Shown in pieces: positions 21,657-29,017 of a stretch of DNA of 64,000 bases. Position 1 is the first letter of the stretch. Each line of letters opens with the position of its first letter. Below the pieces are notes generated by a model. That model did not search any database and was not told the DNA's origin. It worked only from the letters and a program-made list of their open reading frames with translations. The stretch is from IMG/VR virus record IMGVR_UViG_3300033076_001137, positions 1 to 64,000 of that record; one strand, written 5' to 3'. The position numbers and the translations under genes were made by a program. The stretch is from a virus (taxonomy: Duplodnaviria; Caudoviricetes).

Positions 21657-22655
21657 TTACCTCTTGAAAAAGTGATAGCCAGGATGTTCAGTGCTGACAA
21701 TTAGACGACGAGCGTGACTCTCGTCCTTCATCTTTCTAGCGCGAAAAGAGATGAGAATGTTAGACCAATCGTTCACGAGCGATCGAGCCGCAGGATCTTC
21801 TAGAGCATCGCTCAGTTTTGGAGATACAAGCACGAATCCGTCCTTGATCGCTCCCTCGCTCGCTTCCCACACCGCTCTTTCGACGCTCATCAAATCATTG
21901 ATGGGAAAGCTCTTGGGAAGAGCTGGCATCGGACGACCTAAGTTATCGCTTGAATTTGCGATCGCGTTGAGCATCTCGAAATCTCGCTCATAGCAGTGGA
22001 GGGAATTGGAAGTGTGAACGTACTCTCCAAGATCAACCTCAAGCTCATTCGCAAGAACTTCCTGCATAATCGTAAAAGCAGGAACGTCGTACGCGATTCC
22101 GAGAATGATATCGCTGGAGCGCATGTTAACGTGCAGATGAAGTTTGCCATCACGGATGAAGAACTGGAGCGCAAGTGTGCATGGTACGTCCTTAACAGCG
22201 TGAAGAGAGTCATCGGGAGTTCTGATATGGATGACAGCACGACGGCTATCAGGATCACGCTTGAGTTCTTCCTTCACGTACTTCCACTGATTCAGACCGC
22301 CGTCGGCAATTCGCGGATGCAGCTTGAAAATTCTAGCGCCGTAAGCTGAATTTGCCGTCAGACCGTCATCACTGATGTCCTTCCAGAAAGAAGCGTAACG
22401 GGAGATCCACTCGGTGGAATTGTTACCGCTCATATACCATAACGTCTCAGCCACGAAATACGATAGCGAAAAATTACGAGCTTCGATATGAGGAAGACGA
22501 TCGCGAACGTTTCTGATCCTAAACTGAACGCCTAGCTTCTCCTTGATCTTCATACCGCGTGGTGATGAGACGAAATCCGACTCATCACGAATCATGCGGC
22601 ACAGATCAACGTAAGCGTGCGAGAAATTTCCGTAAGTCTTCATAGCTTCAGCCAC
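21657..22655 (-). CDS. Thymidylate-synthase homologue, dCMP-type (putative dCMP hydroxymethylase/methylase)
   Basis: AYGARI, DSRRA, PCT, MRSSD, GIAYDVPAF (Asp at the E. coli ThyA Asn177 specificity position), SLHCYERD. Confidence 0.8.
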   Translation of the reverse strand: MAEAMKTYGNFSHAYVDLCRMIRDESDFVSSPRGMKIKEKLGVQFRIRNVRDRLPHIEARNFSLSYFVAETLWYMSGNNSTEWISRYASFWKDISDDGLTANSAYGARIFKLHPRIADGGLNQWKYVKEELKRDPDSRRAVIHIRTPDDSLHAVKDVPCTLALQFFIRDGKLHLHVNMRSSDIILGIAYDVPAFTIMQEVLANELEVDLGEYVHTSNSLHCYERDFEMLNAIANSSDNLGRPMPALPKSFPINDLMSVERAVWEASEGAIKDGFVLVSPKLSDALEDPAARSLVNDWSNILISFRARKMKDESHARRLIVSTEHPGYHFFKR

Positions 22656-23155
22656 TCCCTAATTTCGAGCGTCTCACGCTCGAGATTTTCGTCATCAACC
22701 CAGATCGTAAGGACCTCACACTTCGTCCACTTCTCAAACTCTGCATAGAGGCCGTCAAGCCTCTCGAGCGCGTGAGAGTCAATGTAACTGTGGAGGTCGT
22801 CACATATCCCATTATAACTCTTCCTGCGGCAGATAACAATCTTACCGTTGGCTTCCGCAAACTTTTCGTCAACCTTACGAAGAACCTCGTCATCTGTCTC
22901 ACGGTTGAAGTGCCTTGAGTAAACCCATTCCGACGCATAATTCCTGTCCATGATGACACTAGCGCGTGTCTGATGGAGAAAATCAGTCAGGAATGTGGCT
23001 CCGTATTTCAGAAGATTCTTGAAATAGCTCGGATCACGTAGATCAGTGAACCACTCTCCCGAATTCTTGAATACTGGGAGTCCCAGTTGACGGGAAAGTT
23101 CAGCAGCGACTTGCGTCTTTCCCGTCATATCTGGACCTTCGAGTGCGATCAACAT
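22640..23155 (-). CDS. Deoxynucleoside monophosphate kinase (thymidylate-kinase-like)
   Basis: LEGPDMTGKT P-loop and MDRNYASEWVY. Confidence 0.85.
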   Translation of the reverse strand: MLIALEGPDMTGKTQVAAELSRQLGLPVFKNSGEWFTDLRDPSYFKNLLKYGATFLTDFLHQTRASVIMDRNYASEWVYSRHFNRETDDEVLRKVDEKFAEANGKIVICRRKSYNGICDDLHSYIDSHALERLDGLYAEFEKWTKCEVLTIWVDDENLERETLEIREWLKL

Positions 23156-23156
23156 C

Positions 23157-24212
23157 TTAACCTCGCTTTGCGTGTTGTTCGATCATATCAATCTTATGCT
23201 CGGGACTAAAATCTACAACCTTCCGGAGAGCCTCTTCCTGGCGAGCGATAATATCAACTCGCTCAGCGACGGTCGTCTGGGAAAGTCGAGTCACTGCTCG
23301 TACGACGTCCTCGGGATCATTGACAAGAAACTCTCCAAGCCCTACGGGTCGAGCGTGAACGTATTCATTAGGAATGAGCGATACGACACCTGCCTGGATC
23401 GCCTCGGTGAAGCGCATGGTGATGTTGCCGTACGGTGTGTAATCATCACGTGTGATGTGCGTCACGGCAATCGAGTTGTTGATGATTCCGAAGATCTCCT
23501 TGTACGCGAGACGATGTCCGAAGGCAACATGTGGATTCTCGCGGAGAAGGACGCTCGGATCCCTGCGCTCAGGGCTTCTCTCCAACCAGTTGCCCCAGAC
23601 CTTTGTCTGAATTCCGCGCTCTCGAAGAGCGCTGCTTGGCTGCGAATAGTACTTCTTAAATTGTGGATCACGATCGTAGTTGTTACCAACGTATGTGTAG
23701 TTGTACGAGTACTCAGCCGGCTTGAAGAGTCGACGTGCAGAGGATGCCCACGGCATAGAAATACGCGAACGCGTCTGCTCTCGTGGATTGATGCATGCAT
23801 CAGCGAGCTGAGCGTTTGGCCACCGTTGTTCCTCCTCGGGTGTCATCTTCAGATCGCCATCGTGAATGATGATGGGAACTCCCTTCTCGTGATAGTAATC
23901 AAGGAGAGCACACTGGCGTCGATAATCAGGTTCGGTCGCTCGATCACCACCGAGAGTAGAATCATTCTTCCAAGTTGGCCAACGCCACTCAACGAAAAGA
24001 ACGTCGCCATCAGGAAATCCGGTGTCATCGTACTGAACGCCCGGATAAGGATCATCATCACGACGCTGCTGAACCTGGATCACCGTATGTCCACGGCGTT
24101 GCATCTCATCCACAAGATCAACTCGACCTCCTCGATAGTGATCTGGTGTTGCGGAGACAGTCTGCTTTTCGAAAGGGGTCACGAAGCCCCAGAAAGAGTA
24201 TAGAATTCGCAT
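23157..24212 (-). CDS. GT-B glycosyltransferase, T4 DNA beta-glucosyltransferase-like
   Basis: 351 aa; YTYVGNNYDR / VWGN / ITMRFTEAIQAG / FLVNDPEDV parallel the recalled T4 BGT segments IYGGSFR / FFGN / ITLRVWE / FYVNNRAEL. Confidence 0.65.
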   Translation of the reverse strand: MRILYSFWGFVTPFEKQTVSATPDHYRGGRVDLVDEMQRRGHTVIQVQQRRDDDPYPGVQYDDTGFPDGDVLFVEWRWPTWKNDSTLGGDRATEPDYRRQCALLDYYHEKGVPIIIHDGDLKMTPEEEQRWPNAQLADACINPREQTRSRISMPWASSARRLFKPAEYSYNYTYVGNNYDRDPQFKKYYSQPSSALRERGIQTKVWGNWLERSPERRDPSVLLRENPHVAFGHRLAYKEIFGIINNSIAVTHITRDDYTPYGNITMRFTEAIQAGVVSLIPNEYVHARPVGLGEFLVNDPEDVVRAVTRLSQTTVAERVDIIARQEEALRKVVDFSPEHKIDMIEQHAKRG

Positions 24213-24220
24213 GATTTACC

Positions 24221-27200
24221 TCACATAACCTTGATTTTCTTACCTTTTGTCGACAACCCGAAGTCAGAACGATCAACCTCGGCAACGCATAGGGTGTATG
24301 GTTCGAATCCAATCTTACCATCCCAATCCCACATGAACATCTTTTCCGTATTTCCGGCCTCACCCATCACCTGAAGCATCAAGTAGGGCTTTCCATTCTT
24401 TGTCTTCTTCTCGACCGAGCTCACGATGACAAACCAGTAGATGTCAAGTCTCTCCCAACTGTCGATGGAGTAAACCTCCTTGTCTTTGAACTTTTGACGA
24501 AGCTCAGGAGACACGAGAGAGAGTGGATCCATCTTACCAGAAAGTTCGATCTGCATAAGTGCCATCTCGCGACGGGTCCATTCGGGCATACCCTCAGTCT
24601 CGACTATGAGCTCTCGGAACTTCTTAATTCCACGCTGCGGATCTTTCTTGGCCCACTTCTTGATATCCTCGGCATTTTCGACAAGAACGTGGTGCATCTG
24701 CTTCCACGAAGAGAACTGCCTATCCTTTCCGACAACTTTCATCGACTCGAAAGCGTTAGCCTTGATAAGAGCCTCGAGGGCTCGACGGTTGAATTTCGAT
24801 GGACGCCACTGACCGTCCTCCTTCCACAGCATCTCCTCGATGCTTCGGTACGGACGACATGTCACGATCTCCTCGATCGCCGTCTCGCCAACGCCCTTAA
24901 TCGTGTTGAACGATGGAATAAGCAGCTTGCGCTCCGAATCAACGGACCACTGGTTCGTGGAGAGATTGATATCGACGTTGCCGATTTCGTACCCCATCTT
25001 CTTCACGTCAGAGATTGCCTGAGATCGATCGTCTGGATTGCCAATCATCGATTCCATGTAAGCGCAGAGCCACTCAGCCTCGTAGTAAGTCAGCAGCCAG
25101 GCGCAGTAGAAAGAGTCGATAGCGTAGGCCAGAGCGTGTGAGAGGTTGAAGCCGTAACCTGCGAAGAAGAGGATGTCATCCCAGAGCTTCGAAGCGACAG
25201 ATTCCTTGATACCGTTGCCGACCGCGCCGTTGACGAAGTTGTCCTTCATCGCCTTCGCTTTCTTCATCGATTCCTCAGGGTTGCCGCCCTGCCGCTTCAG
25301 GATGTTCTTACGTACCTTGTCACACTCGGACTTCGGGAACCCAGCCACCACGTTACAGAGCTGCATGAGCTGCTCTTGGAAGATGATGCACCCGAACGTC
25401 GGCTCGAGAACCTGCTTGATGAGCGGGTGCTTGTAGTCGATATTTCGAGGGTTCGCTTTCGCCTCGAGGTAGAGCTTATCAACCTTTGCTGCAAGAGGAC
25501 CGGGTCGGAAAACCGAGGTCAGGGTTGCGATATCGATGATCGATCTGGGCTTCGCGTTCTGGAAGAGACGTTGGGCTCCCTTGCTGGTGAGCTGGAATAC
25601 ACCGGGAGTTCTGGAAGTTGCCTCGTGGTAGACATTCTCATACACCTTCTGATCATCGAAGTTGATCACGTCAGTTGCCATATGTTGATCGAACCACGTC
25701 TTAACCTCTTGGAACGTCGGATTCTTGATCCCATGATGACGCTGGAGGATGAGCTCAATCGTTCGATGGATGGTTCGAAGAGTTTCAAGCCCTAGCAGGT
25801 CGAACTTAACCCAGCCCAACATCTCGAGATGTTTATAGTTCATACCCTCGACCCACGGCGTCTGCTGCTCACCCTTCGCCATGATGAGTGGCATTCGCTC
25901 CTGGATGCGCTCCGAGATGATGACACCACCAGCATGTCTACCAAGCGCCTTGTTCTGCCGGAAGAGAACCTTGATCGATTCGGAAACCTGTGGGTATCGA
26001 TCGATGAATTCTCGGAAGCTCTGGCAGTGCTCGTAGCTGTCCTCGAAAGTCAGGACGAAGAGGTTCTTGTCATCGCCAACCTTCTTGGTTGCCTCCATGA
26101 CCTCTTTCTCGACAGTCTTCAGGGCTGCGTTGACCTCCTCGAGCGGAATATCGTACAGTCGAGAAACATCTCGGATGAGTGTCTTGAGCTTGAAGGTGTT
26201 GTAGTTCGAGATCGGAACGATGTTCTCGCCGCCGAACTTCTCGCGTAGGATCGAGAGGAGCAGGTCGCGGTTCTCAACGTCGGTATCGATGTCAGGCAGA
26301 CCCTCACGGTCGGGCGACAGGAATCGCTCGAAGAGAAGACCGTACTTGATTGGATCAACGTCGGTGATGCCAAGTACGTAGCAGACGAGGGAGCCGGCAC
26401 CGGATCCTCGACCGACGCCGACGAACATCTGCTCCTTCGCGGCAGAGATGATCTCCTTCATCGTGAGGAAGTAGGACGCGAAATCCTTCTGCTTGATGAC
26501 GTCAAGCTCGTAACGGGCACGCTCGACGTACTCGGGATTCTTATCGAAACCCTTCGCAGCGAGACCAGCCTCGACCGACTCAACGAGAGCCTCATTCGCG
26601 GTCTTGCCCTTCGGGATGACGTAGCTCGGTAGCTTCACGGATCGATCAGGCTGAACGTCACCGATCTCCTCGTGAGCAAGATGCCAGGTACGCTCGACCG
26701 CCTTGCGAACAAGCTCCTCCTCACCGCGGTAGAAATCATCGGTCCCACGGGAGATCATGAACTCATCCCAGACCTGAGTCGCGTTCTTCGGGTAGAGCTC
26801 ACACTTCAGCTGGTCCTTGCTCTTCGGGATCGAATCCGCCGAGAGGTCAGCGTAGTTGAGCCAGCCGAGCTTCTTGTAGATCTCGCGTTCCTTCCAATGC
26901 TCCGGACGCGCGTAGTGGGAGTCGCAGGTGACAACGAGCTGGTCAGTCATGCCCTGACGCTTGGCGAACTCCATGATCGCTCGATTGACGATGTGCTGGG
27001 CTGGCAGACGGTTGAACTGAAGCTCGAGCATCACGTTCTTACGACCCACCGCCCAGGCAAGGCTGTCGAACGAATTTCCCACACGATTGATAACACGTTC
27101 CATGATCGAGGGATCATTGAGGAGTCGGCTGTTCAGACTCTCAAAGCTGTGCTCCTGCAGCTCACGGAAGACCTCAAAAGCGAGTGGACCACCGATGCAA

Positions 27201-27862
27201 GCAGTCGAGACGATGAAATTGTCATCCTCCTGCGCCTCCTTAAGCATTGCCAGGTCGACTCGAGGGAACTTGTAGAAACCCTCGGAGTAACCGCGACTCA
27301 CTAGACCGAAGAGGCGCTCAAGACCCTTGCTGTGTCGCGGGAGGACCACGAGGTGGTGACGACGGTTGATCGGGTTGAAGTGCTTCGTGCTCTTCGTCTC
27401 GTCCTCGTTCTCGATAGTGAGAGCCGAAGCGTCGGTATCGATGCCGATCGTCTCATCATTCTCATCGGTGACAGCGATGATGGGAGTCACCACGCTCTCG
27501 GGCTTCTCCTTCGCCTTCGCGTGACTCTTACGATCTCGCTTGAGCTGCTGCCACTCATGATACTCAGCCTGCCAGGCGTTGAGATCAGGGTGGATGTACA
27601 TCTCACAGCCTGGAATGAACTTCAAGTTCTTCCCAGCCTTCTTCAGCTTATCAGCGTGAAGCCACGCGTGACCGAAGCCGTTCATCTGACCGTGATCGGT
27701 CAGGCTCCAACCATCGAGACCGTTCTCAAGACAGAAGTCGATGTGTTCTTGCGGGTAACCAAGTCCGTCGAACGTGGTTACTTAGGAGAATCCGCTGTGC
27801 GAGTGAAGCCCAAAGAAGCGGCTCGGCACTCGCACGGGATTCTCATTTCCTCCGGTGCTCAT
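24221..27862 (-). CDS. dnaE: DNA polymerase III alpha (family C); interrupted by an in-frame TAA at codon 27
   Basis: PHP motifs LHSHSGFS*VTTFDG and TDHGQMNG; GRGSGAGSLV, PDIDTD, GRHAGGV, KFDLLGL, RPGPL, GYGFNLSHA. The true ATG at 27862 is in frame with the track ORF (27685) and overlaps the upstream stop (ATGA). Confidence 0.95.
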
Positions 27863-28737
27863 GTTGTTTCCCAGTTGATAAGGTTTGCGTACGTTATGTA
27901 CAATTCATTATACTCTGGTGCGCCAATCATTTGCACGATTTCAGCCGGATGCTCGTGTCGAAATAAATCTAGCTTTCTACGAGCAGAATCAGTCATGTAT
28001 CCCTTGATTTCGTAAAAAATCCCATCGACCTTGAAATCTGGGGTGTAAGTTGTTCCGTCAGAGAGCGTGAAGGATTCTGATTCATATTCGAAATCTTTTC
28101 CCTGAAGCTTCAGGATTCTAGCGAAGTTCGCTTCCCACGTGCTTCTCACGTAGAAACCAAGATCTTCTCTAAAACCTCCACGGCCGCGATGATTTCTTAG
28201 TCGTCCCTCTCTCACTCGCTTCGCAGCAGAAAGACTCATTTTCATTCTAGATTCATCTCCCATCTTCTTACCTCGACGGAGATTTGAAACTCTAGCGCGA
28301 CCCTCTTCAGTCTGTGTCCAATGAGTTTTATTTCTCATCTTTCCAGAAGACCATCTTTCTTTCATCAGTTTGGAAAGTTTCTCACGATGTTCGGCGGTGT
28401 TCGGATCCCATCCATCTTCATAACGTTTTTTCATGGATGCGCTTTTCGCAAGACGTTGAGCTTCGTCTTGAATGTAACCGCCCGTTGCTCGTCGAGTAGA
28501 CACCATGTTCGATTTAATGCAAATCGGACAATTTTTCGAAGTTTGGCGGCGAGTTACGTCGACGAAAGGCTTGAAACATGTTTCGCAATCCTTTTGAACG
28601 CCCTCAGTTTTCACTAAAGTTTCAGCTTTTCTCTGTGATCTTAAAGCATAAGAGCACTCTTTTCTTCCACAAGTCTCACGACTGGATCTCGCGACTTGTG
28701 CATCAATCCCGCAAATTCGACAAATGATAATTGGCAT
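27859..28737 (-). mobile_element. Free-standing putative homing endonuclease (Cys-rich N-terminus, basic NUMOD-like repeats, PD-(D/E)XK C-terminus)
   Basis: Several CxxC; RSTWEANFAR...YTPDF...YEIKG; located directly 5' of dnaE; ATAATTAA motif upstream. Confidence 0.7.
27907..27936 (-). promoter_or_regulatory. Sigma70-like promoter for dnaE inside the endonuclease 3' end
   Basis: GTGCAA-18 nt-TATAAT; same -35 hexamer as the promoter at 8464-8492. Confidence 0.55.
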
Positions 28738-28751
28738 CGATCACTCCGACG

Positions 28752-28759
28752 TTAATTAT
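28752..28759 (-). promoter_or_regulatory. ATANTTA(A) motif upstream of the endonuclease
   Basis: ATAATTAA 15 nt upstream of ATG 28737, followed by a GGAG RBS. Confidence 0.55.
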
Positions 28760-28786
28760 CTCATTGTACGCATACTCATAAAGGAT

Positions 28787-29017
28787 TTAGCAGGGGTTAT
28801 TCTTGTACCACTCAATGAGCTCGAGAATTCGTGGAAGCTCATCGTCGTCACAATCCTTGTAGCTTCGGCCGAGGCGCGCCTTCAACCTCTCCCAGATATG
28901 AGCGTACGAGTTACGCTTCTTCAGGAACTTACAAGGTGGCAACTTACCGTCGAGATGATCGCCCGCGTCCTTCGCGAAAGCGCGAACAATCTCTATATTT
29001 TCTTTTGACAGGGCCAT
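28787..29017 (-). CDS. Hypothetical protein
   Basis: ORF 76 aa with GGAG RBS. Confidence 0.75.
   Translation of the reverse strand: MALSKENIEIVRAFAKDAGDHLDGKLPPCKFLKKRNSYAHIWERLKARLGRSYKDCDDDELPRILELIEWYKNNPC

Follow-up and report, generated by a model that had tools for sequence, protein, structure and literature searches.

The window examined here, that is, the whole stretch of 64,000 nucleotides analysed, corresponds to positions 1 to 64,000 of the IMG/VR virus record IMGVR_UViG_3300033076_001137 (Duplodnaviria; Caudoviricetes), and carries on its minus strand a dnaE gene that is broken close to its 5' end by a 9-nt stretch opening with a stop codon. The first segment of the gene (27785..27862) consists of 26 codons that run from the ATG at 27862-27860 to a serine codon, TCC (Ser26, codon 26; 27785..27787), the proposed take-off codon, and it holds the HxH of the PHP domain. 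The 9-nt coding gap, TAAGTAACC (27776..27784), is made up of TAA (27784-27782), GTA and ACC (27778-27776), the last being the proposed landing triplet. The second segment (24221..27775) restarts at ACG, the Thr of TFDG, and its frame is open from ACG 27775 through 1184 codons to the stop that closes it at 24221. The Pfam domains PHP (PF02811), DNA_pol3_alpha (PF07733), finger (PF17657) and HHH_6 (PF14579) are present in that order, and the profile of this dnaE family matched Taq Pol III alpha (2hpi) with an E value of 2e-114. The gene encodes a DnaE-type Pol III alpha subunit, and it is the only dnaE copy in the 73-kb contig.

A homologue search over 5.8 billion proteins returned 3159 dnaE homologues, and the 58 best-ranked N-termini were inspected. 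With the exception of a few that were themselves interrupted, they read HxHxGFS-TFDG with no extra residue. At the DNA level, a script measured at each locus the distance from the HxH to the residue before the DG, and 84 related loci kept the canonical 24-nt spacing; all the canonical relatives lack a counterpart of the 9 nt. In addition, the family profile aligned without gaps to residues 6-63 of 2hpi, although a PDB search with the 121-residue N-terminal fragment alone yielded no match. The canonical homologues and the gap-free alignment therefore mark the 9 nt as inserted with respect to the rest of the family. A preliminary description of this DNA had placed ATG 27862 and TAA-GTA-ACC 27784-27776 in one frame, and direct reading of the minus strand gave exactly these coordinates. 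It had also claimed that removal of the insert restores the PHP spacing, and HxHxxFSxxDG is indeed regained, here and for every insert of the family. Relatives with three extra sense residues at this position, which it had considered as the mark of a simple point error, were not found among the 84 canonical loci.

To describe the inserts of related phages we used loci drawn from viral contigs, from the contigs behind N-terminally odd database proteins, and from metagenome contigs picked by the nuclease described below, the samples being the best 80 of several hundred matches. The insert-bearing loci comprised 24 sequence variants and about 19-20 independent types (independence being counted by insert sequence), with all three frames represented. 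Two insertion sites were recognized: site B, after the Ser of GFS, with inserts of 5, 7, 8, 9, 10, 11 and 15 nt, and site A, two codons upstream, after the Ser of HxHS, with inserts of 12, 41, 42 and 45 nt. In all types the take-off codon was a Ser codon, and excision of the insert restored the canonical motif spacing regardless of frame. All 24 variants opened with TAA, TAG or TGA directly 3' of the take-off codon. For the first 8 independent types, which were found before any stop-based search filter was applied, the probability of this stop-first arrangement by chance is (3/64)^8 = 2e-11.

At its other end, each insert closes with a triplet to which the same tRNA-Ser could pair fully or at two of three positions. 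This last triplet was TCN in 9/19 types (1/16 under the null) and NCN in 16/19; landing TTG after take-off TCG occurred twice, where a G.U pair is possible at the middle position, and landing TGC after take-off AGT once. Among the first 8 types, the landing triplet matched the take-off codon at positions 2 and 3 in 7/8 (p 3e-6). The near-matched take-off and landing pair initially noticed in the window thus generalises to the family. The nearest kin of the window insert were those of L024 (9 nt) and of L017 and L018 (8 nt, two independent assemblies), each of which has one or two substitutions relative to it, the 8-nt form lacking one base as well. One locus, L095, has two in-frame stops within its 15-nt insert. 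Homologous inserts were present in independent assemblies from ENA, JGI, Logan and IMG/VR, and the only other indels at the site were one extra sense codon (L066) and two outliers. In one of these (L136:1370-1420), the PHP motif has one extra base and no stop (HGHSTF, +1 into SLGDG) and adjoins a nuclease homologue; the single base may reflect a sequencing error or else mark a site of +1 frameshifting. The other (L146:1800-1870) is a distant Pol III alpha with a stop-led insert of about 9 nt after the His codon of HLHVH; it also adjoins a nuclease homologue, and the last triplet of its insert mismatches the take-off codon.

Several observations indicate that the gene is alive. An ATG-started mini open reading frame (mini-ORF) ending at the take-off codon was kept, with its frame and HxH, in all 23 variants. 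There is no start codon at the resume site, and from the gap to Met60 (27685), which is the first internal Met, there are 33 codons without an in-frame ATG, GTG or TTG. Across types, this 33-codon stretch showed a proportion of synonymous differences (pS) of 0.8-1.0, that is, saturated, and one of non-synonymous differences (pN) of 0.01-0.15, and the 19 codons before the take-off showed a pN/pS of about 0.15-0.3 with the HxH always kept. When L017 and L024, collinear sisters with gaps of 8 and 9 nt, were compared, the 33 codons showed 8 synonymous and 0 non-synonymous substitutions (neutral P 1.8e-6) and the remaining gene a ratio of non-synonymous to synonymous rates (dN/dS) of 0.084. Therefore, the change of one base in gap length did not relax selection, as a non-translated gap predicts, and the gene is under strong purifying selection even between 8-nt and 9-nt sister alleles.

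Upstream of dnaE, a free-standing nuclease gene (292 aa; 27859..28737, minus strand) ends in a stop that overlaps the dnaE start as ATGA. Its product has a Cys-rich N-terminus, repeated basic helices and a C-terminal PD-(D/E)XK domain of the T7-endonuclease-I type, and it matched Pfam PF05367 weakly, the PHROG annotation 'endonuclease' (9e-13) and the PDB entry of T7 endonuclease I (1m0d, E 1.4e-5), to which its catalytic E, PD and ExK could be aligned. In an alignment of 11 homologues, WEAN(F/Y)AR, PDF and E-x-KG were conserved and the catalytic residues invariant. The putative endonuclease previously seen to overlap the dnaE start is thus backed by a structural match with its catalytic residues in place, and we regard the product of 28737-27859 as a candidate homing endonuclease. 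The DNA that contains it is cassette-specific over 971 nt (27818..28788, minus strand), with no homology to L001 or L005 between 28789 and 27817; where it lies, insert-less relatives have about 90 nt of promoter and their own first codons of dnaE. These two loci share 94% DnaE identity with the window and have the same flanks, without the nuclease gene and without the gap. On its left, the cassette is flanked by a conserved upstream gene (76 aa; 28787..29017, minus strand; blastn homology to L001/L005 ends at 28789) that had no match in Pfam or PHROG. Such sporadic presence at one genomic position among close relatives, taken with the mosaic junction at the gap described below, is what a free-standing homing endonuclease that co-converts its flanks would leave.

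The gap and the nuclease gene are strongly associated. In the 80-locus viral sample, a stop-led insert was found in 5/7 endonuclease-bearing loci and in 2/69 others (Fisher p 2e-5), as had been predicted from the window, and among metagenome contigs chosen by their endonuclease an insert was present in about 22 lineages and missing from about 10. Nuclease homologues lie directly upstream of dnaE next to gaps of 5, 7, 8, 9, 10, 11, 12, 15 and 45 nt, and the nuclease genes are homologous across insert types. The gap was retained without the nuclease gene in L017, L024 and L101. On either side of the gap, the window resembles different relatives: in the 36 nt before it, 1/36 positions differed from L024 and 10/36 from L005, whereas from +45 to +99 after it 1/54 differed from L002 and 13/54 from L024. 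The first dnaE segment is thus of the cassette type. This pattern places a recombination junction at the gap, and the window is therefore a mosaic, as expected if a nearby double-strand break was repaired from a cassette-bearing donor.

Other nuclease homologues were met in different settings. L002, L025, L105 and L106, whose dnaE is gap-less, carry one upstream of the dnaE promoter; its N-terminal half is near-identical to that of the window, it has internal deletions and an odd N-terminus, and appears to be a copy in decay. Contigs in which no dnaE start was detected (L143-L182) contain more distant relatives of the nuclease domain; genes other than dnaE are probably also targets of the family. 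In L020 (285-1289) and L101 (863-1867), the nuclease/dnaE region has an actin-like gene (Pfam Volactin, E 7e-66) immediately upstream.

The RNA around the gap is predicted to fold (27751..27795, minus strand) as a hairpin (27781-27755) stacked on a helix formed by 27795-27792 and 27754-27751, so that the take-off codon and the stop lie in a 10-nt bulge. Both elements had been pointed out in the preliminary description. The 27-nt hairpin proved to be the predicted minimum-energy fold (-10.6 kcal/mol, z -2.6, with 5/200 shuffles as good), and the GCGG/CCGC extension with its 10-nt bulge reappeared in the minimum-energy fold of 27800-27751 (z -2.1). Shuffles that folded as well numbered 5-7 of 200 for hairpin and extension, and at these z values the significance of the structure is modest. 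The sister alleles L024 and L017 have the same fold, which the closest insert-less loci, L001 and L005, lack. In the window, the hairpin begins downstream of the stop and extends into the coding part, while the 41-45-nt gaps contain perfect 12-bp hairpins, 3-4 nt after the stop, and are the only ones with a hairpin inside the gap itself. No hairpin common to all gap types was found; hairpins are lineage-specific. The nascent chain also differs: at take-off, all 21 distinct N-termini with an insert count at least 26 residues, their median being 29, whereas the median of 57 canonical N-termini is 19 (p 7e-11, kinship ignored). The closest cassette alleles share an NPVRVP motif. From the longer N-terminus we infer that the nascent chain might be required as an anchor for the peptidyl-tRNA.

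We believe that a short hop of peptidyl-tRNA-Ser over the gap is the probable explanation for these results, and that the gap would protect the cassette from its own nuclease, in a way that recalls gene 60/mobA of phage T4 with unrelated parts. The ribosome would read 26 codons and halt once UAA has entered the A site, with peptidyl-tRNA-Ser still paired to the UCC of the P site. In place of termination, the tRNA would release UCC, the mRNA would slide by 9 nt, and the anticodon would re-pair with ACC through two G-C pairs. Decoding would then restart at ACG, yielding a polymerase with the canonical ...HSHSGFS-TFDG... sequence. The gap would have come with a mobile cassette consisting of the T7-endonuclease-I-like nuclease gene and a new, longer dnaE 5' end, and its likely role would be to break the target of the nuclease in the very conserved DNA of the PHP motif; the carrier would thereby be protected, and gap-less phages would be cut and converted. 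On the best explanation available, the 9 nt are thus likely to be a non-coding gap inside a working dnaE gene. A hop is the only mechanism that fits all insert lengths, and each of its rivals leaves the stop-first rule, the landing rule or both without an explanation. A tentative extension is that the cassette may constitute a portable, self-sufficient hop module, composed of a longer N-terminal peptide, an A-site stop and a landing triplet that is cognate or matches at two of three positions. Such a module might conceivably drive efficient hops of 5 to 45 nt in any host infected, an idea that we hold with less than even confidence.

Several points weigh against this explanation. The hop, its efficiency, the nuclease target and the protective role are inferred, the hop from comparative sequence. 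In the window, landing ACC matches take-off UCC at only 2/3 positions, the hairpin includes the landing triplet and would have to melt, and the 5-nt, L004 and L015 types have no comparable hairpin. About ten nuclease-bearing lineages are gap-less and, therefore, the gap is not the sole way to coexist with the nuclease. In three of these lineages the nuclease looks degenerate. The selection signals could partly predate the arrival of the cassette, since this moves between backgrounds. The exact 23-mer across the window gap was sought in viral contigs and found in no second one. Finally, short stop-hops in the E. coli constructs of Weiss et al. in 1987 were reportedly about 1% efficient, a seemingly low value for a replicase.

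Had the ribosome simply read UAA as sense, DnaE would carry three extra residues (x-V-T) in the PHP motif. For the window alone such readthrough is formally possible, the insert being of 9 nt, in frame and with a single stop; moreover, the hairpin begins just 3' of the stop, and structures in this position can stimulate readthrough in other systems. But the sisters L017 and L018 have the same insert minus one base (8 nt), the 5-, 7-, 10- and 11-nt types could not be rescued in this way, L095 contains two in-frame stops, and the canonical loci, none of which has the three extra sense residues, keep the HxH-to-D spacing of Taq Pol III alpha. The 5-, 7-, 8-, 10- and 11-nt inserts therefore exclude plain readthrough as the family mechanism, and for the window we consider it quite improbable. 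Removal of the gap before translation, either by RNA excision or editing or because a gap-less sub-population of genomes supplies the polymerase, is about as unlikely. Each gap is flanked by a direct or near-direct repeat of 2-3 nt (CC...CC in the window) that could serve for precise excision; to our knowledge, however, neither bacteria nor phages have a means of cutting 5-15 nt out of an mRNA. These 'repeats' are often synonymous and not identical (TCG/TCA, TCC/TCT, AGT/TGC) and therefore fit tRNA pairing better than nucleic-acid repeats, and the obligatory stop after the take-off codon would have no role in excision. The preliminary description had left a hop, readthrough and a micro-intron as options. 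The hop fits all lengths, readthrough does not hold family-wide, and we know of no mechanism for a micro-intron of 5 nt.

The 5' end might instead be dead, the polymerase being made from Met60 without the first PHP strand, or the gene could be a pseudogene. Gene calls that start at an internal Met are common among gap-bearing dnaE (P0007, P0013, P0067, P0090, P0109), and some bacterial DnaE proteins have a PHP domain without catalytic activity. However, the 33 codons without a start are under strong purifying selection (the 8 synonymous and 0 non-synonymous substitutions between sister alleles), the ATG, frame and HxH of the mini-ORF are kept in 23/23 variants, and translation from Met60 would leave the immediate stop and the matching landing triplet without a reason; a pseudogene is at odds with the dN/dS of 0.084. 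We give a dead 5' end little credence. That the insert is an assembly or sequencing artefact of this contig would agree with the lack of the identical 23-mer in a second contig, but a 9-nt insertion is atypical as an error and homologous inserts occur in the independent ENA, JGI, Logan and IMG/VR assemblies (L017 and L018, for instance, come from two sources), so that the chance of an artefact is practically negligible.

Other mechanisms were considered and rejected. Long ORFs of the contig end in TAA, in TAG and in TGA alike, and its 73 kb contain no tRNA gene; therefore, there is no sign of a changed genetic code, and this possibility, like that of a suppressor tRNA, was dismissed also because the insert is missing from relatives. 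Termination followed by reinitiation does not agree with the resume codons, which are ACG, ACC, ACT, GCT, CCC, GGA and others, with GTG only once. As for -1/+1 frameshifting, there is no slippery site, the residues would be non-canonical, and in-frame gaps with a stop inside could not be served. The Volactin-like gene nearby raised the possibility of an archaeal bulge-helix-bulge mini-intron, but a 5-nt gap is too small for it and the DnaE is bacterial.

Some related observations concern the dnaE genes and their surroundings. In L095, L101, L093 and L097, the frame after the gap closes after about 290, 286, 878 and 987 codons, respectively, and the dnaE matches span about 5 kb versus 3.6 kb; these dnaE genes must therefore contain further large insertions. 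The database homologue P0011 has intein domains, and in this phage group dnaE appears to be a hot spot of mobile elements. Directly downstream of dnaE in the window (21657-24212, minus strand) there are a glycosyltransferase-like ORF, an AAA_28 kinase-like ORF and a thymidylate-synthase homologue, which would fit a possible DNA-modification block. An exact look-up of the window ORF found no record elsewhere, and a DNA search of cultured phages gave no match. Since the best protein matches in cultured phages were below 30% identity (DnaE) or partial (nuclease), no isolate is at hand.

If correct, this interpretation has several consequences. The approximately 20 natural 'mutants', which have different gap lengths, stop codons and landing triplets, with or without a hairpin, within one conserved motif, provide an allelic series ready for asking what the ribosome needs for hopping. 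A second, unrelated family of homing endonucleases would use a coding gap as self-immunity. Moreover, were the portable module to exist, stop-hopping would be a recurrent, evolvable solution for homing endonucleases that target invariant protein motifs and not a one-off of T4. There is also a practical side, since gene callers truncate or mis-frame gap-bearing dnaE genes: the five gene calls at an internal Met listed above and P0021 leave them with a truncated or wrong-frame N-terminus and, therefore, the gap is systematically mis-annotated in public databases.

Programmed bypass has so far comprised one phage example (T4 gene 60 and its homologues), yeast mitochondria and one proposed terminase case, and a bypass in dnaE was met in none of the full-text literature searches. 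According to Manning & Atkins (bioRxiv 10.1101/2022.08.31.505936), the gene 60 cassette 'remains unique' and occurs only in Topo2L genes. The suggestion that the window holds a second example of bypass has to be corrected, since bypass also occurs in yeast mitochondria and has been proposed for the terminase of the Streptomyces phage phiHau3 (PMC10732093). In that terminase, 10-nt inserts would be bypassed upon a UUA trigger (PMC10732093). As in dnaE, an essential phage gene is disrupted by short inserts that have a stem-loop in their vicinity and a codon for landing. However, the trigger there is a rare UUA codon that senses host tRNA and in dnaE it would be a stop, no homing endonuclease is involved, and the role proposed is regulatory. 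Bypassing elements ('byps') are carried by Magnusiomyces capitatus mitochondria, as a passage of PMC10732093 states. They resemble the dnaE gaps in that many independent gaps of variable length are hopped between matching take-off and landing triplets, and differ in being mitochondrial, spread across many genes and not tied to a nuclease cassette. Byps are 27-55 nt long. Another short-gap precedent is the synthetic 'shifty stop', for which Weiss et al. in 1987 reportedly obtained forward hops of +5 and +6 in E. coli. There, a P-site peptidyl-tRNA leaves its codon when the A site holds a stop and re-pairs with a similar codon a few bases downstream, and the 5-nt (TCG to ACG) and 9-nt dnaE types have exactly this arrangement. 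The shifty stop was engineered and of low efficiency, whereas the dnaE geometry is natural and conserved and lies in a gene under purifying selection.

With regard to T4 gene 60, the dnaE system shares a non-coding gap in an essential gene of DNA metabolism, a stop right after the take-off codon, and a landing triplet able to pair with the same peptidyl-tRNA. In both cases, a free-standing nuclease gene and a new N-terminal peptide accompany the gap, and the 41-45-nt dnaE gaps have, like gene 60, a strong hairpin just after the stop. Some MobA elements have lost the nuclease but kept the gap (10.1101/2022.08.31.505936), as have L017, L024 and L101. The differences are nonetheless considerable. 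The gap lies in the PHP motif of dnaE and not in a topoisomerase gene, the tRNA would be that for Ser and not that for Gly (GGA), and the nuclease is a T7-endonuclease-I-like PD-(D/E)XK enzyme, whereas MobA is an HNH nuclease. The dnaE gaps are mostly of 5-15 nt (9 in the window) versus 50 nt, their landing site is often only near-cognate, and the short ones leave no room for an internal Shine-Dalgarno sequence. In T4 the take-off stem-loop includes the stop, while the window hairpin starts after it, and the nuclease gene does not divide dnaE into two ORFs. The dnaE cassette is homologous in sequence neither to the gene 60/Topo2L element nor to the MobA nuclease. The idea of a gene 60/mobA-like bypass cassette hence stands as regards a stop-led gap accompanied by a nuclease gene, and does not as regards homology, gap length and nuclease family. 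The dnaE gaps would constitute an evolutionarily independent bypass family, which appears to resemble gene 60/mobA in its working without being a member of that family.

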